From the NCBI GenBank assembly GCA_964551375.1, contig CAZKBG010000002.1, forward strand, positions 64,962 to 96,961: DNA of 32,000 nt, read 5' to 3'. The notes beneath the pieces were generated by a model. That model was not told where the DNA came from. It worked only from the letters and a program-made list of their open reading frames with translations, and did no database searches. Of this stretch, positions 6,065 to 30,812 are shown one piece after another. The DNA comes from an uncultured archaeon. GTDB taxonomy: Archaea > Iainarchaeota > Iainarchaeia > Iainarchaeales > JAAZKV01. Numbering within the stretch: the stretch's first letter is position 1; the number at the start of each line of letters is the position of its first letter. A program made the position numbers and the translations under genes.

Positions 6065-6183
6065 TTTTAAAAAAGCATGAAAATTTAGCAAATTGCCAAA
6101 AATTTTGCAAAAATTTTATTAAAATCAAAATTTTTCTCAAAAATTAAAATAAATTGAGTTTAATTGAAGCTTATAGAAAGGTA

Positions 6184-6191
6184 TTTATATA
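6184..6191 (+). promoter_or_regulatory. TATA-like box (TTTATATA) upstream of giant gene 2
   Basis: Archaeal-type TATA motif 49 nt upstream of the ATG at 6240. The giant gene 3 TATA-like box has a similar spacing. No experimental TSS. Confidence 0.35.
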
Positions 6192-6239
6192 GTTGAAACA
6201 TTAATTTTATGGTATCGAGCAAAATACGGACGCATTGAT

Positions 6240-9200: not shown

Positions 9201-12200
9201 CTATTTGAAGCAACTACAAACAAGCTTGGAGTAGCAACAATACAAATACCAGCATCACTTCCAGGCGAAAGATTAGTTCTTTCAATTGAAAAATCAGAAT
9301 ACGAAACAGTGAGAAAAGATATTGTAATTGCAGAAGATGTAGTAAGCGTAGACCCAACTTCACTAAACTTCACAGTTAACCCGCAGTCAAAACTAACAGA
9401 TATGAAAACAGTGAAAATCACAAACGAAACAGCAATTGACCTTTATATAAAAAGCATAACACTAACAGGAAAACTAAAGGGAGTTCTTGACGAAGCCTCA
9501 ATTTCAGCATGGTTTGAGAACTTTAAAGGAAAGAAAATAAAATCACAAGACTATGAAGAAGTAGTATTCAAAGTAGCAAGCGCAGCAGTAGTTCCAACAG
9601 CAGAAGACCTTGAAGGAACATTTAACATTACACTAATATCACAGGGAAAAGAATGGGTAAAAGAAATCCCTGCAAAAATCAGAGTAGGACTTGGAAAAGA
9701 TGTTGACAACCAATCATGCCTTGAAGTAACAAAAACAATGTGGGACACAACAACAAGAGGAGCGCAGGTTGAAGCATCATTTGAACTAAGAAACAACTGC
9801 ACAGTAAACGGAGCGCCAGTAATTTTGAAAAACATCGGCGCAACAGTATCACAATCAACAACAGTAACAGGCACATTTAATGCGCAGTCAAAGAACATAC
9901 AAGTAGAACTTGGAAGCGCATTTGCAAGAATATTTAAAACATCAATGGACAAGGGGGAGAAAGTTCCAGTAACAATAAAATTCACCCCAATGCCAGGCTC
10001 AGCAGGAATAGCAACAGGCTCAATAATATTTGAAGCGCTGAATAATACTGACTCAAAAGCGCAGAAACTAACTGCTGAAATGAAATACAATATAATTTAC
10101 GAAAACTTGCAGGACTGCGTAGTGCTTGGAGCAGACGAATTAACAATTGAAGAAGAAGGAAGCGGAACATTTACAGTAAACAATAACTGCAAATCAAAAG
10201 TAGATGTTATACTAAGACCACAAGACTTGCAGGGCTCAATAAATAACACTGACTTTAAATTAAACGCAGGAGAAAACAAAGAAGTAACTGTAAAATCATA
10301 CAAAGGGCAAATAGCAGGAGCATACAATGTAGTTCTTGAAGCAAGAAGCACAGGAGCATCACTTGAACCGGTTGCAAATATTAAAGTAATAATAGAGCCA
10401 AAATCAAGCTGCTTTAAACTTACAAGATACGTTTATGATATATTTGACTACGAAGACAGCGTAAATCCATTTGACGGAATAGACAGAGGATACTTAATCA
10501 ACAACTGCGTTACAAAGAATGTAACAGCAAAAGTAACAGGAACTATTCCTTACGACTCATCAGCAATCCTAAAAACAATGCTATGGGGCGGACTAGTAGG
10601 CGGAGTAACAGCATACTTTAAGACAGGAAAATTTTGGCCAGATTCATGGTTCAACAAAAAGGACCCAAAAGTATCCTCAAATATACAAACAGGATACACT
10701 GATGTAGCGCACGCTCAAAGATCTGAACTTACAAGAGTAAGCACAGAAATGCAAACAGCAAAAGAAACAAATTACGGACAAATAGACGCTAAACTAAAGG
10801 CGCTTAAGAAACAAGCCGATGACACTAATGCAAAAGTAGTGAATAGATATAACTTAAATCGCGCAGAATGCGAAAAAATCTCAGCTAACCCTGCTGATGC
10901 TTCAAGAATTGCATGCTTAACAAAAGCAACTTCAATAAAAGCAGACGCTCAAGCAATAATTACAAAACAATACGCTGCCGCTGAAACTGATATTAATGCG
11001 TTAAGAGAAAAATTAAAGAAAGCTGAAGCAGAGTTCTCAACTCAATTAAAAGCTTCAGGCGAAAAGATGGATTCATACACAGAACAGCAGAGATCAAACG
11101 CTTCATTCCAAGTAGGACAAGGAACTATAAACAATGAGAAAGCAAACAGAGAAATGGACGCAACTCTAAGAGCAAATATTTCAAACTTAAGAAACGAAAT
11201 GAACGCAAAGATTGACGCATGGAATGGATACAGAAGCGACTTCATGAACACACTTTACAAGAAATATGAAAAACTTGACTTAAGCGATGTAGAGAAACAG
11301 AAGAATAACAAAATAACAGCTGATGCGGCTAAACCTGAAAAGTACTCATTAACAACTGCAGCGCTTGACGCAGTAACAGTTGACAAAGTAGAAGAGAAAG
11401 AGTTCTCAACAGCTCCAGCAATTACTGCTATTGACACAACAAAATCAGGACCAAGCCAGATAGCATCAAATGGACTTGCATCAACTAATGCTACAACTGT
11501 AACTGCGACTGATGTAATAACATCATCAGATGGATATACTTTGATTAAAGATGATGGAACAAATCCAAGCGCGGCTCCAGCTGATTATCAGCCTATGAAC
11601 AGTTTGACAAGCAATATTGGAAGATATTACAGAAATCCTGAAAGTTTAATAGTCCGCCCAACTGGTAATGATTCTTACACAGTAACAAGAAATGACGGGC
11701 AGTTAATTGGGACTTGGAGTTATAATAATTCAGTTTGGACTGAAACAATTGATTCAAGCACAAATTACTATGATAGTTCATTTAATCACTTAAAGAAAAA
11801 TGCTAAAGTTGACGGCTTTTTCCTGCTTGCAACAAGCGGAACAGGAGCTTCAACAGGAAGCACTTCATCTTCTGGCTCAAACTCAAACCAGTCAAGCGGA
11901 ATGAACGCAATATTAAACGGAGTAATTGGATACGGAGCAGGCTCGGTAATGCCTAACGGACTTGGCGGAGCACTTGCAGGCGCATTAACTACTGGATTTA
12001 TGCAGTGGATGCAGGCGCAAGACACTACAGTAAATTACAAAGACACTTTCGAAATGAACTGGATTGAATTTGTAAGTGCAACACTGGACAGCCCAAGCGG
12101 AGTAAAAATGGATGTGGGCGAAGCAATGTATGATTATGAAACTTACTACGGAACAACAGTAACTGGAAGCACAGTTTCAGAAACTACAAACGCAACATAC

Positions 12201-14513: not shown

Positions 14514-14605
14514 TTAATTAAAAGGTTTTTCAAAATTTAACCCTAAAAAATCACAAAATTATTTTTTTGGGCAGTGCAAACAAAGATTTTTGCGCATGAA
14601 TAATG

Positions 14606-14613
14606 TTTAAATA
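14606..14613 (+). promoter_or_regulatory. TATA-like box (TTTAAATA) upstream of giant gene 3
   Basis: Archaeal-type TATA motif 46 nt upstream of the ATG at 14659, within a 145-nt AT-rich spacer after the stop of giant gene 2. Confidence 0.35.
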
Positions 14614-14658
14614 CAACAAAATCGTTCTTTTAATGAAATAACCAAAAAGTGTTGCACC

Positions 14659-17600
14659 ATGGCTGATGGAATAAAGGGAGTTTACTATGCTATTGAAGAT
14701 AAATGGTACGCTTTCTGGGACTCGGTTGACAGAGTTCTTCCAGTAGGCGGAGTAATTGACGCAATTGACACAGTAATTCCAAGCATGATACTTTTTATTT
14801 TAGTAATAATACTATTAATCGCATTTGGCGCATTCTTTTTACTAAGCGCAAACCAAGTATTTGACGCGACATTCACAGTTCAGACATTTGACGGCAGACC
14901 AGTGAATGACACTCTTTTAAGCGTTGAATTAATGGAAAATGGGGAGCTTGTAAAAACATTTGAGCAAAGAACTGATTCAGTTGGAGTTGTTACATTTAAT
15001 GCAATAAAGATGGGGCAGGAACTGATTTTTGATATTAACATAAGCAAAGGAACATTCAGCGGCTCATTTGTTATGGGCGAAGGCGCAATGGATGAAGTAA
15101 TAACGCTTGAAGAAAGAAGAGTGCCGCTAAATCTTTCCCCAGTTGTGAAAAAAATACTTGTAAAAGAATCAAGCGGATTTTTAGCAAGAGAACCTATTTC
15201 ATTAGTTTTTGGATGCGAATCATCAATTGTTCTTCCAAACCCATCAAAAGCAACTTTTTCAGGAACATTTGCAGTTGAAGTAACTGAACCAGTTGGATGC
15301 CGTTTAACTGCGACAGTAAATAATCCAAAGTACAAGCAGAAGACTTATTTAATTCAGTCGACAAATTATGATTTATTCCTTGAGCCAATAGAGCCGGTTG
15401 GAACACAATTAAAAGTAATAATCCGCTCTGCAGGATTTCCTGTAAGCGGAACAAATTTTAAAATAAAAATAACAGGAGACGCTAGTTACGAACTTGCAAC
15501 AACAGGCGAATCACAGGCAAGCGCAAATGTTAACCCCGGAAATTACTTAATCACTGTTACTGACCCAAAAGGAAATTATGGTTTAGTATCCAAAAATGTT
15601 ACTGTCACTTCAACAACAGAAGTTTTGGTGGAAGTATCAAAAACTGTAAAAGCACGGGCTACTATAAAAGTAATTGACAGCGAAACAGGCGTTGCAATTT
15701 CAAACGCAATTGTAAATTTAAGAGATTCATTTGGAAGAGAACTTGCAACTCAATTAACTGATAGCCTTGGATATACAACATACAGCTTTACTGATTTAGG
15801 CGATTATTCATTCATTGCTAAAAGAGCAGGGGACCTTAACGGAGGATACCTTCCAAAGGAATCGAAACAGACAATTTCAACTGATACAAATTTTACAATG
15901 GCGCTTGAGGCAATTACAGAAGAAAATGCAGGGAGAACAATTGTTACTGTGTACGATCAGGACAAAGTTCCAGTAGCAAATGCAAAAGTAATGCTGAAGT
16001 ACAAAGAAAATGACGGGCTTGTTGAACTAATGCAGGAGAAAAATTACGGACTAACTGACGCAAACGGAGAAGTATCACTAATTGCTGGACAGCCTTCCGG
16101 TTCAGTGTACGCTTACGCAATAAAAGGACCGTTTAACGGAGCATCAATGGACAAAAGGCTTGCAGTTGAAGCAATAAACAAATTTAATATCGAAATGGAA
16201 ATAGGAAGCGCAACAGTAAAAATAAACGTGCTTGACGAATCAGGAAACAAACTTGACGCAACAGCAGAAATACACTTAGTAAGCGGAGTGAGCGCTGATG
16301 AACACGGAATAGCTGGACTAATACCTGTTGAAAGCGGATATGCAGCAAGAAGCGTAAAAGCAGGACAAAAAGTATTTGTAAAAGTAATGGCTGAAACATT
16401 CGAAGACTATTACACAGCCCCAATTGATTTATGGCCTGACAGACCATATGACCTTGAAATTGTGATGCTGAAAAATATAGCTGAAGCAAAAATACTTCCA
16501 AAAGGAGTGTATAATGCAGACGGCGCTTTAGTTCAAACAATGGCTGCAGGAAAGAGATATTATGCTAAATTTTACATCTTATCAAACAGCGCATATGCAA
16601 ATGTAAAATTTAATTTCAGAGCGGGAAAAGAATCACTCCTTGAAAATGACATAATGGAAGTTGATGAAGTAGAAGCAAGCGGACTAACTTCACAGGCAAG
16701 AGGAGTAAGCTATGATCCTCAAAAAGGATATGATTTTGACGGAAATATTCTAAACCGAACAGACGGACTCTCAAAATGGGTTGAAATGGAATGGACTTCA
16801 TTTGGAAAAGGACTAAGAGAAGTAAAAGTATGGTTTAGAATAAAAAACACCGCTGCTCCAAACCAAGAACTTCAATTCTTCTACCGTGGAAAGTTTGATA
16901 ACTTAAGAAAACCTGAAAGCACTGCAGCGCTTGACTTTTACGCAGACACTTATTTCTCAGAAAAATTCTACGTTGGAGCAGAAACAATCTGCAAAGAGGG
17001 CTTCTGTGCAAACTCTGAATGGCTGTACTCCACAAAAAGCGAGCTTTACGTTGACGAACCTTACTCAATAAAACAGACAACAAATTACAATTATCACATA
17101 ACTTTACTTAACAATTCCGGAATTGACTACGGAACTTCAAAAAAACCAGTGACTTTGTCAATTTACGTGATGGGCGATGATTCTGACGACAAGAAAATCA
17201 AAATCAAAAGCTATGAAATAAAGGACTCCATTGGAAGGCTTACAAATAACTCCGCAATATACAGCGCTGAGAACTTATCCATTACTTCATTTGAGAAAAG
17301 CTCCACAATTGACATGCTTTTCAGCCTTGAAGGAATAAAACAGGGCGCAGAAGCGCTTAAGTTTGAGTTAAAATCAGAAGGAAAAATAATTTACTCAAAA
17401 GAAACTGACATAAAAGTTGTGAGAGAAAAAGACTTTAATGTTGGAATATCTCCTCAATTCATCCCTGCTTTGATTAACACAATGATAGAAGTTACAATAG
17501 TGGATGAAAAAGGCGAACCGCTTCCAGGCGCAACAGTAAATGTTTATGCAAAAGAGCCAGGATACGCGCAGTACCCGATTGATTCAAAAGAAACCGACAG

Positions 17601-20600
17601 GCTTGGAAGAGCTGAAGTAAAATCAGGAGCGCATTTTACAAAAACAAAAGTTATAATTGAAATAATAAAAGAAGGATACTCAAGACAAATGTTCTCAACA
17701 ACTGTTTCGGACGATTTAATCATTGCGTCTCCAGAAGAGCTGTTTGTTGAATTAAACACATTTTCAAAAAGAGAAGAAGTTAAAAAAGTTGAATTCGCAA
17801 ACCTTTCAAGAAGCAAAATGGTGCTAAAAAATATAGTTCTTGACTCAAAGTTCAAAGACTTGATAAATGAAGAAGCATTAAACGCATATTTTGAAGAACT
17901 GACACTTGAACAAAAGACAGTGAAGGGAGAGGACACGCTTGAAATAGAATTTATGAAAATAAGGCTTGCGAATTCAATTAACGAAGATAATTTCATTGAA
18001 CCTATTACTGTAGAAGGAATTGTAAAATTAGTATTTGTAGAACCTGAATCAGGGCTTACATTCAATATAGAACTTCCACTAAGAGTAAATGTATCCTCAA
18101 GCGCAAATCCAGACGCTGAATGCCTGATAATAAAACCAACAAGCAAAACAAGCATGACAACAGAAAACGCGCAGGTTAGATTTAATTTTGAATTAATCAA
18201 CGCATGCACTTCAGACGGAGTAGGAATACCTCTTCAATCGCTAATGGTGCAAGCTCCTGCTGAAATACCAGGAATTGCTGAAATAAGCCTAAGAAACTCA
18301 ACAGGCTCCTCAATTGGAATTACAGCTCTTGACGGCGGAAAAAGAAAATTAGTGGATAATGTCCGCGCAAACGAAAAATTATTCGGCGAAATAACATTTG
18401 CTCCAGGCCAAGAAGCGGTTGGCAAATCAGTACAGATTGCAGTTTCGTACGAAGCAAAGTTTAAGGGAACTACAGTAACAAGCAGTCCTTCAACAGTGAC
18501 TTATACAGCAAATGTAGTAAACCTAAAAGAATGCATGACAATAAGCTCCGAATCAGCTCCTGTTGAATTTAAGGGCAAATCAAAAATCAAAATTGACACA
18601 ACAGCATGCCTTGGGCAAATGATTGACATAATACTTTGCAAAGAAGATTCAGGATGCTCGGGTGGAGCGGACGGTAAAATTGTTTTAAGCAAAAAAACAT
18701 TCACACTTCAAAACAAAGCAGAAGAAATTGAAGCATATAATCCAACATACCCTGGAACTTACGGCGTAACAGTGCACGCAAGAACCAGAGGAACAGCAGG
18801 ATTCTCATACATAGGCGAAGTGCCTGTATCTTTCCTTGAATCTGAAACTAAATACTTCAACTTAAACAAATTTGAATTAACTTTAGTTGGAACAGGCGCA
18901 AAGGACTCAATCATACTTACAAACAAAATGATTTCAGAAACTATAAATGTAAAAGCGGATGAATGCACCTGGGGAAAAGAAGACGCAGAATTTAACTGGT
19001 CAAGCGCATTAACAGGCGCAATGATGGGCGCAATGCTTGGAAACCTAATTGGCTCTGCATACCACCCTGGAACAAAAGACAGCAAAAGCGGGAAAGACAA
19101 AAGTGGCGGAAGCGATGTTGAAGGGATGGACGCAAAAACAAGAGGTGAGGAAATCAGCAGATTAAATGACCTTGAAGCAAAGGGAGGGTTAAGCAGGGAC
19201 CAAGTAGCATATAGAAATGACTTAATCAGCGCGCAAAATAGATTTACAACAGGATATGATTCTTTTATCAACGGCGCAACTGCGCTTAATACGGGAGTGG
19301 ATGTAAGTTCAAGCTCTTCACTATCTTCAGTATTTGGCTCAGGCTCAGCAGCAAGCCTTGGAGTAGGAGAATCAACAACAATGGATACTGAAATGGGAAC
19401 AGTAAGAGTAACAAATATGGGAAACAATGAATACTTTGTACGCTCAAACAGCATTCCTTCAGGAAGAACATACACGGGGGATGTGCAGCTTGGAACAGTT
19501 GGAAATCAATTCGCAAATGCTTATTCAAATACTTCAGGACTTAGAAATTTCTCAAATTCACTTACAATGCCTTTTAGAACCACTCCAAGCACAACAACAT
19601 TAAATCCTTCAACAACAGGGTGGTCAGCTGCGACATATGGGGAAGTTGGACGAATACCAACAAGATATTTTGTTAACCTTCCTGCAATAATACATGCGCA
19701 GGAAAATGCATTGAAAGCAGATTCAAATAAATTATTATTAGCTGGCTCGGGCGGAAGTAGCACAAACTGGGTTCAAATATCACTAACAATAATCGGAGCA
19801 GTAGTTGGCGGATGGCTAATGGGCGACTCAGGATACAAATGCGCTGATAATTACGATGTTGTTCCAATGGAAGACTTTGTAATACTACTTCAGGGAACAA
19901 CAGTTGACTACACAGGACCGACAGGCGAAACAAGCGGAGAAAGAGTAATACCATCAGATGCAGGAGCATTAACATTTACTCTGGACAATATTGCTCCAGC
20001 ATGGAACTTTGAAGACGCGCAGTACGGATCTGAAGAAACTGTTGCAATTGACTTCGAAAATAACGGACTCAACGAGCCTGTTCCAAGATACGGCACATTC
20101 ACTGTGAATGCAAATGTACACAACCATGGAAGCGTAGTTCACAAAGTTGACGGAAGCACTCACACAAGCACTGGAGAAAGCGATTATGATGTATTCTGCA
20201 ATAACGAATCATTTGGAAGCTTTTGGATAGGCTCTGAAAGCAATCAGGGAGACTGCGGAACAGGCGGGAGAATTTCAGTAAGCAATTATTCTCAGAAGTA
20301 TCATTTAAGAGTAATCAGCGGAGAGCCAAAGGATGAAGAATCTTACATTAAGAAAGCAACAACATGCTATATGGGAGCTCTAACTGGAGCAACAGGAAAA
20401 GAAGCATTGCCAAAAGTAAAACTTGACTGGACATGGGACTCAATTAAAGCAGATACATGCGATTACACAAATCCTGACCACGTTTATTGTGACGGAACTC
20501 AATTCATGATTTCACTTACAAAGAAACTATCTCAGCTTCAGAAATTCATGAGAACAAACGGGGGCAAATTTGAATGTCCTCCTGACGAAATAGAAAATGA

Positions 20601-22275
20601 AGTGCAGAATGCAATTGAAGAAGTTAATTCAAAAGTGAATGAAGTTCCTGACGGATTTATCGGAATATCTGATATATCCTTGACTCTTGATGTTGTTACA
20701 GGGGAAGCAGTTCCTACAATAAAAATAAACAACAGGTCGGGAAAAGTTGAAACATCATACTTAAGCTTTGCATGGAAAGGACAGGGCGAAGCAACTCCAG
20801 AATACCCAAGCAATGTAATTGAATGGGATGTTCCAATCGGAGAAAGCACAAGAGTACTTGACTCAGTAGTAGTTTCAAAATATGAAGGAGTATATTACTT
20901 CACAGCAGTAATGAACGGACCGATGGGAGACTCAAGATCATTATCAAGAGCATTCCTATATAGAGACACAAACGGAACCTGCTGGATGCCGCAGACAACA
21001 GATTCAATTGCAGGACTTCCAGGACTTGCATTCTACGTAGCAGCAATGGACAACCCTACTTACACTGAAGGGGTAAGCGATCCGTCAGAATTGTACAATC
21101 ACATAAACTTTGGAATGTACCTAACAAAAGAAACATTTAGTGAAGACTTCCTAAGAGACTTCAAGGATTATTACGGAGGGGGCATACTCCAAATATCAGA
21201 TCCTGACGAGCAGGATATTGTAAATTACTTAACATCAGGAAATTTTAAGATAAAGAAAAAATTCTCGGGAGACAACACAATTGAGCCTGGACTTTATGAT
21301 GTTTGGGTAAGATTAAACGCAAAAGACAAATTCCTTGTAATTGACGGAAACAATACAAATATGACAATAGAACTTTTAATGATTAGAAGACCAAGCGTGG
21401 ACAGTCCGTTTTACATGATACCATTTGATGGAAGACTTGGAGAAAGAGGCGGAAGACAAGGATACGGAGCAGTTTACACAAGAGGGGAAGGCGAAAGCGA
21501 CATTGAAATAAGCAATTACAGCCAGAATGGAGTTTATACTTTCTACAATGCGGCAAGCAATGGTGTAATAAAAGTTACAACAAAAACAAAAACAAGCTTT
21601 GAAGGTGTAAACTCATCAGTATCAACAAGAGGACAGCTTGGAGCGGTAAGCGTGTCAGGCTCAACAGCAGAAATGATACTCACTCCAAATTATGCGACTC
21701 CTGTAATTTTAAAGAACACAATTGACGGCACAGAAGGAAACATTGCATTCAGCGTTGAAAATCCAAACAGAGCAGTTGTTACAAGAGGAAATATAGCATA
21801 CTGGACAGGCGCTGCAAAAAGCAAAGATTACTTTGGAGCAAACGCAGTTGAATCATATTATAATTCGCCTGACTTTAGACTATCAAAACTCGGAGAGAAC
21901 GTATTCGGATTTGAATACAGAAACATTTCAAAGAAAGGCACAATGTACCTAAAAACCACTTTATTCACTCCAGTGGATCAGGCATCATACATGCTTACTT
22001 CAAAGAACAGCACTACAAAATTCTGGACTCCTGAAACAACATTCACTGAAACAGTTGACTTAAAAGGAATAAGCGGAATGGCTTACAATGCGCCAGGCGA
22101 TTACATTAACTCATTGCAGGATTTATTCACAGCAGTTGAAAATAATGAAGTGTGCCTGTCAAATGACGGCTCAAGCACCACATTCTGGTGGAACCCAGTT
22201 GCTATTGAAGGAACTGTGGGCTCGCTTGGAAGAAGCTTATACCACGAAGAAGTTGCATTAGTTGGAGTGAACTAA
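14659..22275 (+). CDS. Giant membrane-anchored surface protein, paralog 3 (2538 aa)
   Basis: Uninterrupted 7.6-kb ORF. The N-terminal KGVYYAIEDKWYAFWDSVD motif plus anchor (MILFILVIILLIAFGAFFLL) is colinear with paralog 2. Multiple CarboxypepD_reg-like repeats (ATIKVIDSETGVAISNAIVNLRD...; RTIVTVYDQDKVPVANAKVMLKY...; VTIVDEKGEPLPGATVNVYAKE...). A GxxxG-zipper segment GAMMGAMLGNLIG starts at the same residue number (1447) as the equivalent segment in paralog 2. C-terminal motifs shared with paralog 2: LDWTW, C..TQ...KKLSQL, PFDGRLGERGGRQGYGAVY. Confidence 0.92.
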   Translation: MADGIKGVYYAIEDKWYAFWDSVDRVLPVGGVIDAIDTVIPSMILFILVIILLIAFGAFFLLSANQVFDATFTVQTFDGRPVNDTLLSVELMENGELVKTFEQRTDSVGVVTFNAIKMGQELIFDINISKGTFSGSFVMGEGAMDEVITLEERRVPLNLSPVVKKILVKESSGFLAREPISLVFGCESSIVLPNPSKATFSGTFAVEVTEPVGCRLTATVNNPKYKQKTYLIQSTNYDLFLEPIEPVGTQLKVIIRSAGFPVSGTNFKIKITGDASYELATTGESQASANVNPGNYLITVTDPKGNYGLVSKNVTVTSTTEVLVEVSKTVKARATIKVIDSETGVAISNAIVNLRDSFGRELATQLTDSLGYTTYSFTDLGDYSFIAKRAGDLNGGYLPKESKQTISTDTNFTMALEAITEENAGRTIVTVYDQDKVPVANAKVMLKYKENDGLVELMQEKNYGLTDANGEVSLIAGQPSGSVYAYAIKGPFNGASMDKRLAVEAINKFNIEMEIGSATVKINVLDESGNKLDATAEIHLVSGVSADEHGIAGLIPVESGYAARSVKAGQKVFVKVMAETFEDYYTAPIDLWPDRPYDLEIVMLKNIAEAKILPKGVYNADGALVQTMAAGKRYYAKFYILSNSAYANVKFNFRAGKESLLENDIMEVDEVEASGLTSQARGVSYDPQKGYDFDGNILNRTDGLSKWVEMEWTSFGKGLREVKVWFRIKNTAAPNQELQFFYRGKFDNLRKPESTAALDFYADTYFSEKFYVGAETICKEGFCANSEWLYSTKSELYVDEPYSIKQTTNYNYHITLLNNSGIDYGTSKKPVTLSIYVMGDDSDDKKIKIKSYEIKDSIGRLTNNSAIYSAENLSITSFEKSSTIDMLFSLEGIKQGAEALKFELKSEGKIIYSKETDIKVVREKDFNVGISPQFIPALINTMIEVTIVDEKGEPLPGATVNVYAKEPGYAQYPIDSKETDRLGRAEVKSGAHFTKTKVIIEIIKEGYSRQMFSTTVSDDLIIASPEELFVELNTFSKREEVKKVEFANLSRSKMVLKNIVLDSKFKDLINEEALNAYFEELTLEQKTVKGEDTLEIEFMKIRLANSINEDNFIEPITVEGIVKLVFVEPESGLTFNIELPLRVNVSSSANPDAECLIIKPTSKTSMTTENAQVRFNFELINACTSDGVGIPLQSLMVQAPAEIPGIAEISLRNSTGSSIGITALDGGKRKLVDNVRANEKLFGEITFAPGQEAVGKSVQIAVSYEAKFKGTTVTSSPSTVTYTANVVNLKECMTISSESAPVEFKGKSKIKIDTTACLGQMIDIILCKEDSGCSGGADGKIVLSKKTFTLQNKAEEIEAYNPTYPGTYGVTVHARTRGTAGFSYIGEVPVSFLESETKYFNLNKFELTLVGTGAKDSIILTNKMISETINVKADECTWGKEDAEFNWSSALTGAMMGAMLGNLIGSAYHPGTKDSKSGKDKSGGSDVEGMDAKTRGEEISRLNDLEAKGGLSRDQVAYRNDLISAQNRFTTGYDSFINGATALNTGVDVSSSSSLSSVFGSGSAASLGVGESTTMDTEMGTVRVTNMGNNEYFVRSNSIPSGRTYTGDVQLGTVGNQFANAYSNTSGLRNFSNSLTMPFRTTPSTTTLNPSTTGWSAATYGEVGRIPTRYFVNLPAIIHAQENALKADSNKLLLAGSGGSSTNWVQISLTIIGAVVGGWLMGDSGYKCADNYDVVPMEDFVILLQGTTVDYTGPTGETSGERVIPSDAGALTFTLDNIAPAWNFEDAQYGSEETVAIDFENNGLNEPVPRYGTFTVNANVHNHGSVVHKVDGSTHTSTGESDYDVFCNNESFGSFWIGSESNQGDCGTGGRISVSNYSQKYHLRVISGEPKDEESYIKKATTCYMGALTGATGKEALPKVKLDWTWDSIKADTCDYTNPDHVYCDGTQFMISLTKKLSQLQKFMRTNGGKFECPPDEIENEVQNAIEEVNSKVNEVPDGFIGISDISLTLDVVTGEAVPTIKINNRSGKVETSYLSFAWKGQGEATPEYPSNVIEWDVPIGESTRVLDSVVVSKYEGVYYFTAVMNGPMGDSRSLSRAFLYRDTNGTCWMPQTTDSIAGLPGLAFYVAAMDNPTYTEGVSDPSELYNHINFGMYLTKETFSEDFLRDFKDYYGGGILQISDPDEQDIVNYLTSGNFKIKKKFSGDNTIEPGLYDVWVRLNAKDKFLVIDGNNTNMTIELLMIRRPSVDSPFYMIPFDGRLGERGGRQGYGAVYTRGEGESDIEISNYSQNGVYTFYNAASNGVIKVTTKTKTSFEGVNSSVSTRGQLGAVSVSGSTAEMILTPNYATPVILKNTIDGTEGNIAFSVENPNRAVVTRGNIAYWTGAAKSKDYFGANAVESYYNSPDFRLSKLGENVFGFEYRNISKKGTMYLKTTLFTPVDQASYMLTSKNSTTKFWTPETTFTETVDLKGISGMAYNAPGDYINSLQDLFTAVENNEVCLSNDGSSTTFWWNPVAIEGTVGSLGRSLYHEEVALVGVN

Positions 22276-22386: not shown

Positions 22387-22806
22387 ATGATTCTATCTTT
22401 GCTCACTTTGGGGCTTTCAAGCATTACCCCCCCGATTCTCTTCTTTGACGAGCTGATTGGGGACATGACTTTTGTTCTAAAAATATTTGTTCTAATGACA
22501 ATAGTATCTTATGTTGTCCAACACCTTGGGAAAGGAGTTTTAGCGCTTCTTGTAATTGCAGTAATGTCCTGGTTCATTATATTTGACTACTTCATGTACT
22601 TTGGCGGAATTTATATTTTATACATGTTAGCTCTGTTCGGCGGAGTACAGCTTGCAATGGATTTCTTTATTGTTGGTCCTCAGATGTTTGCCGGCGGACA
22701 CGGCGGCGGAGGCCACGGAGAAAGCGAAGGCGAGCACATTACAGGGTTGGAATTCAAAGAAAAACAGCACAGGATGATGGAAATGAGAAAGAGGGCTGGA
22801 TTCTAA
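22387..22806 (+). CDS. Small polytopic membrane protein with Gly/His-rich C-terminal tail
   Basis: 139 aa with about 4 hydrophobic helices. The tail is GGHGGGGHGESEGEH followed by a basic end. Its stop overlaps the next start (TAATG at 22804-22808). Confidence 0.75.
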   Translation: MILSLLTLGLSSITPPILFFDELIGDMTFVLKIFVLMTIVSYVVQHLGKGVLALLVIAVMSWFIIFDYFMYFGGIYILYMLALFGGVQLAMDFFIVGPQMFAGGHGGGGHGESEGEHITGLEFKEKQHRMMEMRKRAGF

Positions 22807-23132
22807 TGAACTCAAAAGGAAACTTCTTATTTATAATAATAGGATTAATGGTGGGTTCGGTAGTTTTGCTCCCTGTGTTGATGTATGTATTTCCTCCGAT
22901 TGATATTATTGTAAAAATAATTCTTGTTTTTTCAATCTTTATGATGGTGAGAGGATTTTTAGGAAACGGAGTGCTAACACTCATTGTTTCAGGAATTTTA
23001 ATTTACTTTTTAGTAATCAAATGGTGGTGGATTGGAGCAGGCGGATGGATGGCAATAACCTTAGCATCGCTTGGAATATTCAGCATAATAATGTGGGGCT
23101 CACAGACATTAATGATGTTCACAAAAAGATAA
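22806..23132 (+). CDS. Small polytopic membrane protein
   Basis: 108 aa, almost entirely hydrophobic (3-4 helices, WWWIGAGGW segment). The ATG shares a base with the upstream stop, which implies translational coupling. Confidence 0.75.
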   Translation: MNSKGNFLFIIIGLMVGSVVLLPVLMYVFPPIDIIVKIILVFSIFMMVRGFLGNGVLTLIVSGILIYFLVIKWWWIGAGGWMAITLASLGIFSIIMWGSQTLMMFTKR

Positions 23133-23134
23133 CC

Positions 23135-23163
23135 CTCGCTTGGTTTGAACTAAGGGCGAGTTT
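23135..23163 (+). terminator. Hairpin followed by TTT immediately after the stop codon
   Basis: CTCGCTT (23135-23141) pairs with GGGCGAG (23154-23160): 5 Watson-Crick plus 2 G-U pairs and a 12-nt loop, followed by TTT. A terminator or processing role is only a guess. Confidence 0.3.
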
Positions 23164-23251
23164 GAGACAGGAAGAAAGGTTTAATTAGGAAGAAATGGTA
23201 GTTATTTGTAAGGAGAATAGATTGGAGATAGGCAGGTAAGGAAGTGCAAAA

Positions 23252-23512
23252 ATGGCTATTGACATATTTGGAGCATTGAGCGGAGAAGACATATTCACAA
23301 CGCTGACGCTTATTCTTCTTATAGTATACTTTCTTTGGATTTATGCATGGGCAAAAAAACAAATCGGCCCTAACTTGGGGCTTTTGCTTGCAATAATTAT
23401 AACTTTCCTTTTGTTTTACAATTTCCCTGACCTTATTTGGATACCGTTTATTTTATTCATCTGGTCAGTTTTCGGAAAGGACCTTTTGGAGCGCGTTCCC
23501 AAAACAAAGTAA
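23252..23512 (+). CDS. Small membrane protein (2-3 TM)
   Basis: 86 aa. Hydrophobic helices TLTLILLIVYFLWIYAW and LGLLLAIIITFLLFY... An AGGAAGTG SD-like motif lies upstream of the ATG. Confidence 0.7.
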   Translation: MAIDIFGALSGEDIFTTLTLILLIVYFLWIYAWAKKQIGPNLGLLLAIIITFLLFYNFPDLIWIPFILFIWSVFGKDLLERVPKTK

Positions 23513-23622: not shown

Positions 23623-23943
23623 ATGGATTTGTTGATGTTTTTAGTTTCAGTTGCGCTACTGGGATTTGCTGTCCAGCTTGGCGAACTATGGATAGTTCTT
23701 GGCGCGGCAACAATTCTAATCCTTGCTTCAAGAGATTTTAAGACAAGCCTGCTTTTGGTTTTTTCAGTATTTGTTTTATATGTGGTTAATGGAATTGGAA
23801 TGAAAGAATACTGGATTGTTGCAGTATTTTTGCTTTTAGGCGTGGCTTACATGCTTGGGTTAGGAAAAGAAGAAGCTCCTGCGGATCCATATGCCGGATT
23901 ACTTGGCGGAATGGGCGGCGGGGGAATGCCTGGGATGGAGTAA
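23623..23943 (+). CDS. Small polytopic membrane protein with Gly/Met-rich C-terminal tail
   Basis: 106 aa with 3-4 hydrophobic helices. The tail is PYAGLLGGMGGGGMPGME. Confidence 0.7.
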   Translation: MDLLMFLVSVALLGFAVQLGELWIVLGAATILILASRDFKTSLLLVFSVFVLYVVNGIGMKEYWIVAVFLLLGVAYMLGLGKEEAPADPYAGLLGGMGGGGMPGME

Positions 23944-23949
23944 GGTATT

Positions 23950-24294
23950 ATGAACTGGGGCGGGGCGGTTGTGGCGCTTCTAATTGCTGTAATCTTCTTA
24001 TGGGCTCAGCTTGAATGGCTTGCTTTTGTTTTTTTTGTGATAATGGTGCTTGTGCTCGTTTATCCGCGGGCAAAGAAAGAAGCTAAAAAATCATGGGAAG
24101 ACATGAAAAAAGCAGATGCTTTCAATCCTGAAGCTAAATTTGACGGCTATGTGAAAGGCATTTCAAAGCATGCAAGCGAGCACCTGATAAAGAAGCCTGT
24201 GGACTCTACTGAAGTGAACGCAAAAGCATGGCTTCATAAAACTTCAAACATGGCAAAAAATTTTTTCAGCGAACTCGAATCGCTCTTTAAGTGA
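23950..24294 (+). CDS. Membrane-anchored protein (2 N-terminal TM helices plus charged soluble tail)
   Basis: 114 aa, starting 6 nt after the previous stop with an AAGGT motif upstream. N-terminal hydrophobic hairpin followed by a Lys/Glu-rich helical C-terminus. Confidence 0.7.
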   Translation: MNWGGAVVALLIAVIFLWAQLEWLAFVFFVIMVLVLVYPRAKKEAKKSWEDMKKADAFNPEAKFDGYVKGISKHASEHLIKKPVDSTEVNAKAWLHKTSNMAKNFFSELESLFK

Positions 24295-24462: not shown

Positions 24463-24960
24463 CTACTTCTTTGCTTCAAGTTCAGTAAGTATTTTTCTAT
24501 TATTTTCAAGAATCTTCTGGAGCAAATCAATGCTGGCTTTTGTTGCCGCATTAATATCTTCCATTTTTGTCTCCATTTCAGAAAGCCTAAAAGCAAGAGA
24601 AGAATCAATAGGCGCTTTTGGGGCTTCTATGCTTGTTTTAACTTCCTCAACGCTCTTTGCAATAGTATCAAGTTTTTCAGAATGCTCGTCAAGCGTGTTA
24701 TTAACCATTGTGTGATGCAAGTCCTGCGTCTCGGCAGTAGTCTCCACCTGTGCTTTTAGCATTTGAACTTCCCTTGGCTGAACAGCCGGCTGAATAGGCG
24801 GAGCTTCTTCCTGTTTTGGCTGCTTGGACTTGGCAAGAACTGCATTTGCTTCTTCTGCAGTCAAACCCGCATCAACAAGAGTGGAAATAATTGTAGGATC
24901 ATCAATTCCGGCTTCAATGAGCCGGTTAACAGTATCCATCATCACTTGCTCATTAAGCAT
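24463..24960 (-). CDS. Coiled-coil protein with UBA-like helical N-terminal domain
   Basis: 165 aa. The N-terminus VNRLIEAGIDDPTIISTLVDAGLTAEEANAVLA resembles a three-helix UBA-like pattern. It is followed by a Pro/Gln linker (PKQEEAPPIQPAVQP) and heptad-like charged helices. No family recognised. Confidence 0.7.
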   Translation of the reverse strand: MLNEQVMMDTVNRLIEAGIDDPTIISTLVDAGLTAEEANAVLAKSKQPKQEEAPPIQPAVQPREVQMLKAQVETTAETQDLHHTMVNNTLDEHSEKLDTIAKSVEEVKTSIEAPKAPIDSSLAFRLSEMETKMEDINAATKASIDLLQKILENNRKILTELEAKK

Positions 24961-25153: not shown

Positions 25154-26638
25154 ATGGATATGCGGCTGGACTATGGTCCATGGGAAGTAATTTTTAACGG
25201 ACAAGCCTACGGACACGAAGTGGAAGTAGCGATGAATCCTGAACATTTTTACATTGCGCTGATTTATGATAAAAAAGAAGGAAAAAGAAACGGCGCGGTA
25301 GTTGAAGGATACAAAGCATTTTATGCAAGAGGCTCGCTTGAAGCATTTGTGCAAACCCTTCCAAAGAACTGCTTTGCCGTTGAAAAAAATCTTGGGGACA
25401 AAACTTCAAAAATATTCTTTTTATCATTTGACCCTTTCTATGTGGATTTTAAGCAGGAAGATTATTCAAGAAAAATCGATAATATTATTCGAAAAACCGA
25501 CGAAGGCGCGGCAACAATAGTTGACCTTGCGAGAGCAAGCGCAATAGAGCTAAAAGAGCTTGATACTGTTTCAAAGGCGGACTATGTGGGAGTGCTTGGA
25601 GACCCTTTCACAATAATGCAGTTTGTTTTAGGAAGCAAGGAAAATAAACTTACGAGAATGGACCTTGTGCAGAAGAAAGAATATCCTGAAGACATGGCTC
25701 CGATGATACAGCTTGGATTAAGCAAAACAAGAGAAATAATGAAAGAGCCGGCAAAAAATCTTTATAAAACACAAATCACGGGAGACGGGCTCGGATTATA
25801 TTATTCAGCATATGTTGTCTGCGAGCAGATGCTTCTTGACGATTATCCTGTGCTTATAATAGACGACATCGGATATTTTTCCCAGCTGGGAGTAGTTTCA
25901 ACAAACTCAACCGAGTTAAAAGAAGAAATAGTCGACTTTGAGCCGATGGCTTTTCCAATGCGCCCGCTTGTTGCAAAAGAATCAATAAATGTTTCACTAA
26001 AAGACGCTGATTTGATGTTCATGCTGGAACTAAACGGGCTCTTTGACACTGAATTTAACAAAAACCTTGCGCTGTTCAGCTTTGCAGCACAGGTGAATAC
26101 AATAAAAGAACTTGTTGACAAAGTGCTTTTTACAAATGAAATGGGGGAGTATGATAAATTAAGAGCTGAAAGAATACTTAAAATAATTGAGAAAAAACTT
26201 CCAAACATCTTCGGCTCATCGCTTCCGATTGATGAATTAACAAAAACAGTCGCGGGAAAACTTGGAAGAGCGGTGGTTGTTGAAATAAAAAAACTTGACA
26301 TGGAAGAAAGACTTGTATTCATGCACACACTTTTTAGGCAGATAACAAAATCAGCATCGGAGAACAAGCAGTTAAACTGCGTTCTTGTTGTTCCTAACCT
26401 TGATGATTTGCTTGCCGCAAATGAAGAAAGAGCCACAACTGCGCTCTTGAGGCTTCAGAGAAGAGGAATCGGACTTGTAGTTTGCACAGGAAAAGAACTG
26501 CCTGAAAATTTAACACAGGCATTCAGCGCAAAAGTAAGCGTTGTGAGCGGAAAAGATGTTGCGGTTTCAATAAAAGGGAAAAGAAATTACAGAATCACAC
26601 TAAGACCTACTCTAAGCGGCTCTCCAAGAGCAAACTGA
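25154..26638 (+). CDS. HerA/FtsK-like (DUF87-type) P-loop protein with degenerate Walker A/B motifs; probable pseudo-ATPase
   Basis: The ORF track starts at a TTG (25088); I prefer the ATG at 25154 (MDMRLDYG...). QITGDGLGLYYSAYVV...YPVLIIDDIGYF is colinear with the HerA pattern I-x-G-x-T-G-S-G-K-S ... V-x-I-x-D-P-H-G-E-Y, but GK[ST] is replaced by LYY. NCVLVVPNLDDLL sits where hhhhDEAH is expected. RLQRRGIGLVVCTGKELPENL matches the G-R-K/R-x-G-h-x-h-h-h-x-T-Q segment. No canonical GxxxxGK[ST] anywhere in the protein. Confidence 0.6.
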   Translation: MDMRLDYGPWEVIFNGQAYGHEVEVAMNPEHFYIALIYDKKEGKRNGAVVEGYKAFYARGSLEAFVQTLPKNCFAVEKNLGDKTSKIFFLSFDPFYVDFKQEDYSRKIDNIIRKTDEGAATIVDLARASAIELKELDTVSKADYVGVLGDPFTIMQFVLGSKENKLTRMDLVQKKEYPEDMAPMIQLGLSKTREIMKEPAKNLYKTQITGDGLGLYYSAYVVCEQMLLDDYPVLIIDDIGYFSQLGVVSTNSTELKEEIVDFEPMAFPMRPLVAKESINVSLKDADLMFMLELNGLFDTEFNKNLALFSFAAQVNTIKELVDKVLFTNEMGEYDKLRAERILKIIEKKLPNIFGSSLPIDELTKTVAGKLGRAVVVEIKKLDMEERLVFMHTLFRQITKSASENKQLNCVLVVPNLDDLLAANEERATTALLRLQRRGIGLVVCTGKELPENLTQAFSAKVSVVSGKDVAVSIKGKRNYRITLRPTLSGSPRAN

Positions 26639-26692: not shown

Positions 26693-27184
26693 TTATATTT
26701 TCTTTGAAGCGTCTTTTTCGCGAAGCTTTTTATCAATAAGATCCCGAACTTGAGTCAGCGTTGCAAAATCAAGCGGATTAATAGAATCAATTACATATTT
26801 TAGTTCTTTTAGTTCTTCCTTGCTTGCGGTTCTTCCACGCATATCCTCAACCTGCGCGCCAAGAAGAGCAACCTGCTGCTTTAGTGAATTAACTTCCTCG
26901 CTGTTTGCCCCGCCCTGAGAAGAAAGCGCGGGGGCATTAACAACCTTATCTTCAAGATTTTTGATTTTCTTGTTCAAAACAACTAAGTTTCTTCCTAAAA
27001 TCTTCTCATTTCTGACAAGATACTTGATTTTTTGGGTTACAAGAAGAATGCTTGAATTTAATGCCCTAATATCCTCTCTAATTCCTCCGCCGCCGCTAAC
27101 TATTGGCATCGAAGAACTAACTGACTGCATCTGCATCGGGGCGCCCTGCCCACCGGAGGTATTTGATCTATCAGGCCTTGGCAT
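26693..27184 (-). CDS. Coiled-coil protein with disordered Gly/Ser/Met-rich N-terminus
   Basis: The ORF track begins at a GTG (27193); the first ATG is at 27184 (MPRPDRSNTSGG...). Heptad-like regions (ILGRNLVVLNKKIKNLEDKV; VNSLKQQVALLGAQVEDM). No family recognised. Confidence 0.65.
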   Translation of the reverse strand: MPRPDRSNTSGGQGAPMQMQSVSSSMPIVSGGGGIREDIRALNSSILLVTQKIKYLVRNEKILGRNLVVLNKKIKNLEDKVVNAPALSSQGGANSEEVNSLKQQVALLGAQVEDMRGRTASKEELKELKYVIDSINPLDFATLTQVRDLIDKKLREKDASKKI

Positions 27185-27280
27185 AAATAACACACATTAG
27201 TAAAATTAACCTGGCTATTATTAAATAGGTTTTGATACTTAAAAATGTATTGTATGCAGAAAGAAAGAAAAGAGAAAGCA

Positions 27281-29806
27281 ATGCTTCTTGACGCAACTTA
27301 TTTTGATTCAAGCGAAAAATCTGAAATTGCATTGTACTGCTTTGACGGCAAAAGCCATTACTGGGTAAAAGACACAAACTTTCTGCCCTACTTGTACATC
27401 TTATCTTCAAAAGCTGATGTTAAGAGAACCGCAAGCGAAGTGCTGAATTTGACATTCGGCTCTGAAGAAAAGTTCAAGGCAAAAACTGCCTCACAAACGG
27501 AGCTTATCTGCAAAGGCAAATCAGTTATAAAAGTTGAATTTAACAAAGTCTCCCAGCTTGTTTTAGCAAGAAAAACATTCTCCGAAGCAGGATATGAAAA
27601 GCATGAATATGACATTCAATATTCAAAAAGATATTTGCTTGACAAAAGACTTGAGCCGGGAAACTGGGTTGAATACACTGTTGTTTCTGAAGAAAAAACT
27701 GCTGAAAAGAGCGCATCTGCCAAAGATTTAGAAAATAAAACTGCTGATTTTGAAAGCGAAGACGAAGAAGGGGTTTTGAAGCTCCCAGTTGAAGGAAAAA
27801 TTAAGGTAATCAAAGATGCGCATGCAATTGACGGGGAATTTATCGGCAGAGCAACTGCGTTTGATCTTGAAACAAAGATGGGCAAAAAGTTTACTATTGG
27901 AATTGAGCCAATATTAATGGTTTCAGTAGTGGCAAATGATGTGGGGTTAGCTTCGTCAAAGCCAAATTATGAACGAGTAATGTCCTACGGCACCGCAAAA
28001 GTTCCAAATCTTGAAATGCTTAAAGATGAAAAAGAGCTTGTTGAAAAAACAATAACTGAACTAAATCACGATAATAGTTTTATTGTAACTTATAATGGGG
28101 ATAATTTTGATTTTGCTTATACAAAAGAGCGCGCAAAGAAATTCAAGCTGGATTATTTGGTAAATGGAATATCCCCAAGGACTATGCGAAAAGGAATTGA
28201 TAATGCAGTAAAGTTAAGCGGAGTCCAGCATATAGATTCATTTCAGATAATGCGATTTCTTCAAAGAACAGGCGCAGTGAATGTATCCAAACTTGATATT
28301 GAAAGCGTTTCAGAGAAAGTATTTGGGGAATGGAAAGAAAAAGTCCTTCCTAAAGAAATTACCGAAGCATGGGAAAGTAAGGATAAGAAAAAACTTGAAA
28401 GGCTTGTGGATTACAACTTGAAAGATTCAAGAGTTGCATTAAAAATTGCAAAAGAATTTCTTCCATTGTTTGTGGAAATATCTAAACTAACTTCCCAAAC
28501 GCTTTACGAAACAACAAGAAACACCACTTCCCAAATGGTTGAAGATTTGCTCCTCAAGGAAGCTCATTATCGCGGAATAGTTGCGCCAAACAAGCCGAAA
28601 GAAAATGAAGTAACTCAAAGAACAATGAATCCAATTAAAGGGGCATTTGTAAAAGAGCCCTTAGCAGGGCTTCATGAAAACTTAGCAGTGCTTGACTTTG
28701 CCTCGCTTTATCCAAGCATAATAATAAGCCATAATATTTCTCCTGATACCTTGAACTGCGCTCACGAAGAATGCAAAAAAAATGTTTCTCCAGACGGCAC
28801 ATGGTTTTGTACATATGAAAGAGGGTTATTCCCGCAAATACTTGAAAGCATGCTAAAGCAAAGACTTGTATTAAAACGCGAATACAAACGCAAGAAAAAA
28901 GAAGATGGAATTGATGATAAAGTTTTATTTGCAAAACAATGGGCGCTCAAAATTATTCTAAACTCGGTTTATGGATACTTGGGGTATCCAAGGGCAAGAT
29001 GGTACTCAAGAGAATGCGCAAGCGCAACAACCGCCTGGGAAAGAGATTATATTCACAAAACTATTACAAAAGCTGAAAAAGAGGGATTCAAAGTATTATA
29101 CGGCGACACTGACTCTGCATTTATTTTAATGAATAAAAAAACACGTGATGAAGTAAAGGATTTTGTTGAAGGAGTGAATAAAGAGCTTCCAGAAGATATG
29201 GAGCTTGAAGTGGACGGGTTTTATAAAAGAGGAATATTTGTGACAAAAAAAGAAGGAGGCGCGGCGAAGAAAAGATACGCATTAATGGATGACAAGGGCG
29301 CGTTAAAAATTGTCGGATTTGAATATGTAAGAAGAGACTGGTGCATGCTTGCAAGAGAAACCCAAAAAAAAGTAATAGAACTAGTGCTAAGCGAAGGAAA
29401 ACCGGAAAAAGCGGTTGAATATGTAAGAAATGTAATTAAAAATTTAAAAGAAGGCAAAGTGGAGAAGAAAGAATTAGTAATAATGACAATTCTTCAAAGA
29501 GAGCCAAAAGATTATGATTCAATCGGCCCTCATGTTGCGGCTGCGGAAAAAGCAATTGCGCGAGGAAAAGAACTTGGAGTGGGCTCAATGCTGAGTTTTG
29601 TTATAAAAAAACCAACCAAAGGAAAAGAAAGCATTTCAGAAAAAGCAGAGCTTGAAGAATATGTGAGCGAAGGCGATTATGATGTTGATTACTATCTTGA
29701 AAACCAAGTAATTCCTGCCGTTATAAAGATACTTGCAGAACTCGGATATTCAAAAGAAGATTTACTCACAGGCGGAAAGCAGACTGGATTAAGCGCATGG
29801 GGTTGA
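27281..29806 (+). CDS. polB: Family B DNA polymerase (archaeal type)
   Basis: All motifs are present and contiguous: Exo I FDLET, Exo II YNGDNFDFAY, Exo III DYNLKD, Pol A LDFASLYPSII, Pol B KIILNSVYGYLG, Pol C YGDTDS, plus KKRYAL. The start at 27281 (MLLDATYF, the usual archaeal PolB N-terminus) is preferred over the upstream ATG at 27245. Confidence 0.95.
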   Translation: MLLDATYFDSSEKSEIALYCFDGKSHYWVKDTNFLPYLYILSSKADVKRTASEVLNLTFGSEEKFKAKTASQTELICKGKSVIKVEFNKVSQLVLARKTFSEAGYEKHEYDIQYSKRYLLDKRLEPGNWVEYTVVSEEKTAEKSASAKDLENKTADFESEDEEGVLKLPVEGKIKVIKDAHAIDGEFIGRATAFDLETKMGKKFTIGIEPILMVSVVANDVGLASSKPNYERVMSYGTAKVPNLEMLKDEKELVEKTITELNHDNSFIVTYNGDNFDFAYTKERAKKFKLDYLVNGISPRTMRKGIDNAVKLSGVQHIDSFQIMRFLQRTGAVNVSKLDIESVSEKVFGEWKEKVLPKEITEAWESKDKKKLERLVDYNLKDSRVALKIAKEFLPLFVEISKLTSQTLYETTRNTTSQMVEDLLLKEAHYRGIVAPNKPKENEVTQRTMNPIKGAFVKEPLAGLHENLAVLDFASLYPSIIISHNISPDTLNCAHEECKKNVSPDGTWFCTYERGLFPQILESMLKQRLVLKREYKRKKKEDGIDDKVLFAKQWALKIILNSVYGYLGYPRARWYSRECASATTAWERDYIHKTITKAEKEGFKVLYGDTDSAFILMNKKTRDEVKDFVEGVNKELPEDMELEVDGFYKRGIFVTKKEGGAAKKRYALMDDKGALKIVGFEYVRRDWCMLARETQKKVIELVLSEGKPEKAVEYVRNVIKNLKEGKVEKKELVIMTILQREPKDYDSIGPHVAAAEKAIARGKELGVGSMLSFVIKKPTKGKESISEKAELEEYVSEGDYDVDYYLENQVIPAVIKILAELGYSKEDLLTGGKQTGLSAWG

Positions 29807-29912
29807 AGTTTTTTTATAAGTAAAGTGTATATACTACCGCAAAGACAAAGACCAGAGGTTAAACTTGCTCCGCTAAAGTGAGTTTAAAACACTTGCTAAA
29901 TAAGGTTATTTT

Positions 29913-30812
29913 ATGGAAACGAATGTTTTGAATGCTTATAAAAAAGCGGCTGGTATTTGGCGAAGCGCAATTGGAGTAGCGGAGAAAAAAGCGCAGGAAG
30001 GAGTTCTTCTTTTTGATTTGGCTGAAGAAGTGGAAGCATTTGTAAGAGCCGAAGGGGCAGAAAGCGCATTTCCAATAAATTTAAGCATTAATGAAGAAGC
30101 AGCGCACTTTACTCCAAAATGGAATGACTCCCTTGAACTAAAAGCAAGCGATTTATTAAAAGTTGATATTGGGGTAAGTTTTGACGGATACATCTGCGAT
30201 GGGGCAGTAAGCGTGAATTTAGACAATACGCACGCAAAGCAAATTGAAGCAAACACGCTTGCGCTTGAAAATGCAATCAGCGTAGCAAAATTTGGAAAAC
30301 CAGTTGAATTAATCGGGGCTGAAATTGAAAAAACACTAAAATCAAAAGGGTTTAATCCGGTGTATAATCTTGGCGGGCACGGACTTGGAAGAAATGATAT
30401 TCATTCATCGCCAAGCATACCAAATCATGCAGGCGGGAGCAGCGAAGGACTAAAAGAAGGCGCAATTGCAATAGAGCCTTTTGCTTCAACCGGAGTAGGG
30501 CATGTTGCTGAAGTGCAAAATGTTGAAATATTTGCGCTAACCGATAAAAAAACAGTTAGAAATAATTATGCAAGAGAAATAATTAGAATTGCGGCAAGAT
30601 ATGAAGGAAGACCATTTGCTGAAAGATGGATACGAAAAGAACTTGACACTAAACTTAGCGGGTTTCAAGTAACAATAGGGCTAAAAGAGCTGATGAAGTA
30701 CGGCTGTGTTACTGCATTTCCCGGGCTGAAAGAAGCAAAAGGCGCGATGATTACTCAAGTTGAAAAATCTGTTCTAATACTTGAAGACAAAACAATAGTG
30801 CTTGGCGAATAA
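29913..30812 (+). CDS. map: Methionine aminopeptidase, type 2 (archaeal, M24A)
   Basis: 299 aa. Has AFPINLSINEEAAHFTP, the metal-ligand context KVDIGVSFDGYICDGAVS (D, D), GGHGLG (H), IAIEPF (E) and QVEKSVLI (E), plus the type-2 helical insert between them. Confidence 0.9.
   Translation: METNVLNAYKKAAGIWRSAIGVAEKKAQEGVLLFDLAEEVEAFVRAEGAESAFPINLSINEEAAHFTPKWNDSLELKASDLLKVDIGVSFDGYICDGAVSVNLDNTHAKQIEANTLALENAISVAKFGKPVELIGAEIEKTLKSKGFNPVYNLGGHGLGRNDIHSSPSIPNHAGGSSEGLKEGAIAIEPFASTGVGHVAEVQNVEIFALTDKKTVRNNYAREIIRIAARYEGRPFAERWIRKELDTKLSGFQVTIGLKELMKYGCVTAFPGLKEAKGAMITQVEKSVLILEDKTIVLGE

Follow-up and report, generated by a model that had tools for sequence, protein, structure and literature searches.

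The systems in print that come nearest to the locus described here are, as far as the accessible text of both reports goes, the Ced/Ted systems (PMC9905601) and the giant proteins of nanohaloarchaea that are accompanied by VirB4-like ATPases (PMC10266531). In the accessible portions of the latter work, giant immunoglobulin (Ig)-like SPEARE proteins with VirB4/TraG-like ATPases are proposed to act in host attachment and secretion. The window analyzed here, a 32,000-nucleotide stretch from an uncultured archaeon of the Iainarchaeota (assembly GCA_964551375.1, contig CAZKBG010000002.1, positions 64,962 to 96,961), is similar by description: it comes from a DPANN archaeon and combines, in one locus, giant membrane-anchored Ig-like proteins with an FtsK/HerA-superfamily ATPase domain. 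The SPEARE ATPase, however, is described in those portions as well conserved and fused to the giant protein (PMC10266531), whereas that of the window is a separate and seemingly dead protein, and the locus differs from the published one by its multiple small membrane proteins and its pair of coiled-coil proteins. This 494-residue protein, hereafter the pseudo-ATPase (25154..26638, plus strand), is a HerA-fold pseudoenzyme found throughout its phylum, in a conserved cassette whose other products are unnamed membrane and coiled-coil proteins. We found no description of its family in the full-text literature covered, outside which most subscription papers lie, nor in the accessible parts of PMC4858521, PMC11329633, PMC12892359 and PMC12857230, in whose supplements it could appear under the name of a hypothetical protein or an arCOG.

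By fold, the pseudo-ATPase belongs to the FtsK-HerA superfamily. Structure and profile comparison reveal a RecA-like P-loop domain with a HerA-type helical insert at residues 177-492 (25682..26629; all features of this gene lie on the plus strand), and its best matches on both counts are archaeal and bacterial HerA (DUF87, PF01935; S. solfataricus 4D2I, D. radiodurans 7WRW), with which it shares the core, the insert and the order of motifs. A preliminary description made from the DNA letters had recognized this HerA-type (DUF87) order of conserved blocks; the motifs it quoted are present in the translation and the comparisons bear it out. As a single query the protein gave no informative match in Pfam, NCBIfam or the PDB, and a profile built from its close homologs found no relative in the PDB; DUF87 was matched by 20 of 53 aligned family members at E ≤ 0.1 (best 8e-6). 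The start methionine is common to the 52 closest homologs (35-81% identity).

What the protein has lost is the catalytic apparatus. Motifs were counted in proteins of at least 400 amino acids (aa) pooled from homolog searches and from the open reading frames of loci L005-L092, which gave 285 sequences, or 240 after duplicate removal, with the remote match P0204 and shorter fragments left out; the register was set by aligning profiles with four active paralogs that the same genome encodes. GK[ST] aligns on G214-L215-Y216, with a one-residue gap in the loop in three of the four paralog alignments, and the degenerate P-loop G210-Y216 (25781..25801) thus carries L215 at the Walker A lysine position. 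The preliminary description was right about this loss, although the LYY that it placed opposite GK[ST] is one residue out of register. Its question whether orthologs share the substitutions can be answered: GxxxxGK[ST] occurs at the aligned position in 0/240 relatives. The lysine position holds Arg in 147 of the 240, Leu in 39 (the state typical of the query's own clade) and Lys in 4, and a Ser/Thr for Mg2+ follows in 8. At the Walker B position (P414-N415 in the window, 26393..26398) the acid is gone, as had been claimed, with Pro in 155/240 and [DE]E in 7/240. The arginine of GRKFG aligns on Q435 (26456..26458); this is the arginine-finger position, R381 in HerA, where 10/240 relatives have Arg. 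The finger is therefore lost as well, contrary to the earlier reading of an RR as its retained form. All four catalytic features are absent from 213 of the 240 sequences, 25 have one, 2 have two and none has three or four. As a control, an active 435-aa paralog showed both Walker motifs in 29/29 proteins from 30 loci, a figure for which the extraction itself demanded the Walker B string. We rejected a relocated Walker A because [GA]xxxxGK[ST] strings, found elsewhere in 11 of 175 relatives, lie at scattered positions; the window's own translation contains none anywhere, which agrees with the earlier statement that the protein has no other GxxxxGK[ST].

In S. islandicus HerA, K154, E356 and R381 are the Walker A lysine, Walker B and finger positions, and the K154R, E356Q and R381K variants have very low or undetectable ATPase activity (PMC4351679, accessible text). 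Judged from the alignments and this biochemistry, the pseudo-ATPase very probably can neither hydrolyze ATP nor, because the arginine finger is lost, complete a neighbor's site in trans. Other positions are strongly kept: E224 in 240/240, R340 in 235, R484 in 233, R480 in 227, D237 in 208 and G210 in 194, with E224 and D237 encoded at 25823..25864 and R480 and R484 in a C-terminal RxxLRPxLS motif (26591..26617). D237 stands where HerA has its Asp after the second strand (D176 in Sulfolobus), an equivalence drawn from the motif and not from a residue-level alignment. Also conserved across the family are the GPW and NP motifs of the N-terminal alpha/beta domain (residues 1-160, 25154..25633).

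The retention of E224, D237, G210 and an arginine at the lysine position, in the proportions just given, could mean that a non-canonical nucleotide-binding or catalytic site has been kept and that the protein is a sensor or a slow enzyme. Elp4-6 are among its fold matches and are reported to use ATP without a canonical P-loop. Together with FlaH and domains 2-3 of EccC/EssC, these non-catalytic RecA-fold scaffolds match the fold much more weakly than HerA does and belong to different systems; FlaH and the EccC domains still bind ATP. We regard such a site as very improbable: the query's own clade has Leu at the lysine position, the Mg2+ Ser/Thr is present in only 8/240, the Walker B acid is replaced by Pro, and K154R inactivates HerA in the accessible text of PMC4351679.

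The family pervades the phylum. When its profile A2 was run against 151 genomes of the window's phylum (Iainarchaeota by labels), 148 matched, two of them weakly (E 3e-5 and 9e-4), leaving 146 strong matches at E ≤ 3e-66; among genomes at least 90% complete the count was 55/55. Each genome has one strong copy among the matches listed, sometimes split over contigs. The genome that contains the window is 1.09 Mb in size and 93% complete. The source labels of the relatives mostly read 'archaeon', Iainarchaeum or Diapherotrites. One relative is labeled Bacteroidales, which we attribute to a binning error. In a tree of 237 sequences, two clades of 37 and 31 members, both with good support, contain no fetched locus from the window's phylum, and one of these clades includes a Micrarchaeia-labeled protein; a search with one Micrarchaeia-clade pattern found no relatives in viral contigs.

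The gene is under purifying selection, with ratios of nonsynonymous to synonymous substitution rates (dN/dS) against five relatives of 0.046, 0.12, 0.17, 0.15 and 0.21, dS being near saturation in four. It diverges faster than the neighboring DNA polymerase, aminopeptidase and F4 genes described below and about as fast as F1, with 21-30% identity across families. A decaying pseudogene or a chance resemblance might be suspected from the query's lack of a Pfam or NCBIfam match and from the copy in L005, which is split over two frames; the low dN/dS (0.046-0.21) together with the strong match in 146/151 genomes refutes this and makes it practically excluded. That copy (L005:2120-3599), the closest relative, lies on a low-coverage contig and its split is probably an assembly error. 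Fold, loss of GK[ST] in 240/240 relatives and selection together uphold the earlier proposal of a pseudo-ATPase of HerA/FtsK fold.

The genes around the pseudo-ATPase are conserved with it. Upstream and head-to-head lies F1 (24463..24960, minus strand), which encodes a small helical N-domain, a linker and a coiled coil; downstream and tail-to-tail lies F4 (26693..27193, minus strand), a strongly conserved coiled-coil protein whose gene is divergent from that of a family B DNA polymerase (PolB). PolB and a type II methionyl aminopeptidase (MAP) are syntenic housekeeping neighbors (27245..30812, plus strand). Before F1, on the plus strand, come three paralogous small membrane-protein genes of family F2 (139, 108 and 86 aa; 22387..23512) and two more, F7 (106 aa) and F11 (114 aa; 23623..24294). 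Giant Ig-like proteins and a 356-aa membrane protein fill 1..22275 (plus strand), outside the minimal cassette; the two complete giants have one N-terminal membrane helix each, and the first giant is cut by the window edge. F2 gave no informative match in Pfam, NCBIfam or the PDB, and searches with F1 and F4 returned generic coiled coils only. A weak match of F1 to FlaX/ArlX was rejected for that reason.

We compared 27 loci, namely the window, 6 of 28 relative loci and 20 regions chosen across families; related genomes are non-independent in these linkage counts. Typically, one or more giant Ig-like genes come first and are followed by small membrane genes, F1, the pseudo-ATPase, F4, PolB and MAP, with F1 and F4 on the opposite strand. 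F1 was present in all 27, F2 in 26, F4 and PolB in 23 each, giants and F7 in 19 each, MAP in 18 and F11 in 12. In a sample of 61 genomes the pseudo-ATPase gene was found in 59, the other two also being without strong F1 and F4 matches; F1 lies head-to-head within 600 bp in 56 of these 59 and F4 tail-to-tail in 50. F4 is single-copy in 58/61 genomes and as conserved as PolB and MAP, and it may belong with replication instead of the membrane cassette. The same gene order recurs in the distant 37-member clade (~20% identity), where ten metagenome loci, several on short contigs, gave F1 in 9, F2 in 6 and F4 in 6. Small membrane genes in this clade number up to eight (L085-L090, L092), and several of the encoded proteins carry tails in which PIIIES- or PIIVKRKY-like motifs recur and may serve as docking peptides. 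Where the locus is rearranged and the giants are missing (L065, L071, L072, L066), F2, F7, F1 and the pseudo-ATPase remain together, so that this cassette is intact in 4/5 rearranged loci without giant genes; three of the four also lose PolB and F4. In L065, L071 and L072, all of family f6, the cassette is flanked on one side by a gene for an L15e-like ribosomal protein and on the other by a TFB-like gene, and ScpA/ScpB-like genes lie a few kb away in L065 and L071; these names are read from the sequences. After MAP, the window has a 207-aa basic open reading frame (30858-31481) without a family match and unshared by the compared loci. A sigma-70 promoter scan gave results at chance level, the sigma-70 model being ill-suited to archaea. 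No RNA data set was listed as a match, which has no bearing on whether the gene is expressed.

Because catalysis has been lost and the gene is nevertheless kept phylum-wide beside small membrane proteins, the pseudo-ATPase is probably a structural part of a membrane complex. Judged from gene context, its functional partners are fairly likely to be the coiled-coil protein F1 and the small membrane proteins of families F2 and F7. Since these are its most stable genomic partners, we tentatively read it as an ancient, catalytically dead offshoot of HerA (DUF87) that now serves as the structural cytoplasmic platform of a conserved membrane complex. The structural role proposed in the preliminary description gains indirect support from the conserved membrane-protein neighborhood; the hexameric hub or regulator that it named as examples would be conjectural. 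On our reading, the platform would probably be the base of a surface apparatus to which the giant proteins belong, with a separate ATPase supplying the power. Among the weakest steps of this proposal, the pseudo-ATPase would oligomerize through its retained HerA core (E224, R340, R480, R484), its N-terminal domain would dock under the membrane, it would form the inner base bearing the giant Ig-like surface proteins or a pilus-type machine, and the energy would come from a separate ATPase such as the T2SSE-family one upstream. This T2SSE-family (pilus) ATPase gene lies 39 kb upstream in the window's genome. It shares a contig with the pseudo-ATPase in 22/56 genomes, in 17 of which it is 20-66 kb upstream on the opposite strand. 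The 97-kb contig of the window also carries six giant genes (G000:C2:25487-87236; 1700-2960 aa, one broad family), four of which lie in the interval from the pilus ATPase to the cassette.

Several observations weigh against a membrane-complex platform. All functional links rest on gene order, and the housekeeping genes PolB and MAP are linked too (23/27 and 18/27 loci), which means that some of the synteny is inherited. The F1 gene lies on the strand opposite to that of the pseudo-ATPase, so the two do not form a single transcript. No giant gene is present in 8/27 fetched regions, one locus (L078) keeps only F1 near and has no small membrane gene nearby, and the pilus ATPase is outside its usual place in 5/22 genomes. 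The pseudo-ATPase itself has no predicted membrane helix. Finally, because G210 (194/240), D237 (208/240) and an arginine at the lysine position (147/240) are retained, some ligand binding may be possible.

Another possibility is that the pseudo-ATPase joins a mixed ring with an active HerA paralog (the 435-aa, ~1100-aa or 728-aa DUF87 ATPase), where as an inactive subunit or a brake it would set asymmetry or throttle DNA translocation. The search for an active paralog suggested earlier found four DUF87 ATPases in the window's genome, all with Walker motifs in their translations, and the 435-aa family or its ~1000-aa paralog is present in 61/61 genomes. The family profile scores the four at 43.8, 17.5, 17.2 and 12.9 bits, above R388 VirB4 and VirD4, both negative. 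These paralogs are mostly unlinked to the pseudo-ATPase gene: the distance to the 435-aa gene is ~4 kb in L072 and 16 kb in another genome (G016), but only 5/53 genomes have both on one contig, in four of them more than 370 kb apart. Identity across families is 21-30% for the pseudo-ATPase against ~60-68% for the 435-aa ATPase, and loss of the finger would silence both interfaces of such a subunit. When K154A and wild-type HerA are mixed 1:1, unwinding is almost abolished (accessible text of PMC4351679, citing its ref. 43), which fits an inhibitor and not a constitutive subunit. On balance we consider a role as partner of a paralog unlikely.

The paralogs have features of their own. The 435-aa HerA-like ATPase (G000:C1:395226-396533, L004; relatives L093-L122) has its match split right at Walker A in ~10 genomes, in frames of up to ~900 aa, which resembles an intein. 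A 1176-aa HerA-like ATPase with a long acidic N-terminus (G000:C1:157156-160686, L003) lies three genes from an SMC-like gene; relatives of ~850-1100 aa, some of them carrying large insertions, are present in most of the genomes sampled. The genome also has a separate canonical HerA (G000:C1:661587-665839) with, a few genes upstream, what from its motifs is presumably NurA.

Alternatively, the pseudo-ATPase could be a cell-cycle scaffold, an FtsK-like hub without a motor that acts with small membrane proteins and the two coiled-coil proteins to anchor the chromosome or the replisome at the membrane or the division site. No division gene was recognized among the conserved neighbors, PolB and F4 part from the cassette in family f6, and no DNA-binding domain was detected in the pseudo-ATPase; we give this possibility little weight.

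The pseudo-ATPase can also be compared with HerA-NurA and with the VirB4/CedB/TedB ATPases (4AG5; TrwK 7O43, 8RTD). Unlike HerA, the pseudo-ATPase lacks Walker A, Walker B and the arginine finger, and the genes conserved around it in the 27 loci encode membrane proteins, coiled-coil proteins, PolB and MAP, with no NurA, Mre11 or Rad50 among them, although no dedicated NurA profile was run. Structural alignments to HerA stop short of the N-domain: among the 50 rows of a second structural comparison, HerA chains align only from residue 176-182 on, whereas for the five full-length TrwK/VirB4 chains the alignment runs from residue 16-23, matched to TrwK 203-221 onward, and covers 306-375 residues with a root-mean-square deviation of 15-17. 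This likeness of the N-domain to the VirB4 pre-ATPase region is a weak structural hint, of use as a lead. Sequence tests of the N-domain against TrwK and PF03135 were negative (hhalign probability 0.3), PF03135 was found in 0/26 genomes, and the N-domain has no family match; modeled alone it gave a poor model (predicted local distance difference test score, pLDDT, 40), and a HAS barrel was sought without a Pfam match. The ATPase domain is nearer by profile score to the DUF87 proteins of its own genome than to R388 VirB4 or VirD4. In contrast to VirB4/CedB/TedB, the pseudo-ATPase has no catalytic motifs, and no VirB6/CedA-like channel or pilin was identified at its locus; small membrane genes are linked as VirB2/VirB3/VirB6 would be, but F2 had no informative match. 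By its catalytic motifs the pseudo-ATPase falls outside both HerA and VirB4, and it would work like neither HerA-NurA nor a VirB4 enzyme. We can nevertheless imagine, as a quite unlikely extension of the platform reading, that the cassette is a domesticated base plate derived from type IV secretion, in which a dead VirB4-like protein holds several small membrane proteins of pilin- or VirB3-like type, together with coiled-coil adaptors, beneath the giant Ig-like adhesins, and the neighboring pilus ATPase supplies the power. It would then be the organelle by which Iainarchaeota, and at least part of Micrarchaeota, contact their hosts.

Genomes of ~1 Mb shed what they do not need, and yet a catalysis-dead HerA-fold protein is kept by nearly all sampled genomes of this phylum, along with several unnamed membrane and coiled-coil proteins. 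With the pseudo-ATPase, the FtsK-HerA superfamily gains a branch of pseudoenzymes that spans a phylum. Its cassette provides a compact parts list for a putative core machine of DPANN archaea, of interest for their host contact and division, and the parts are small enough to be amenable to modeling, to expression and to a search in the proteomes of cultured Micrarchaeota.
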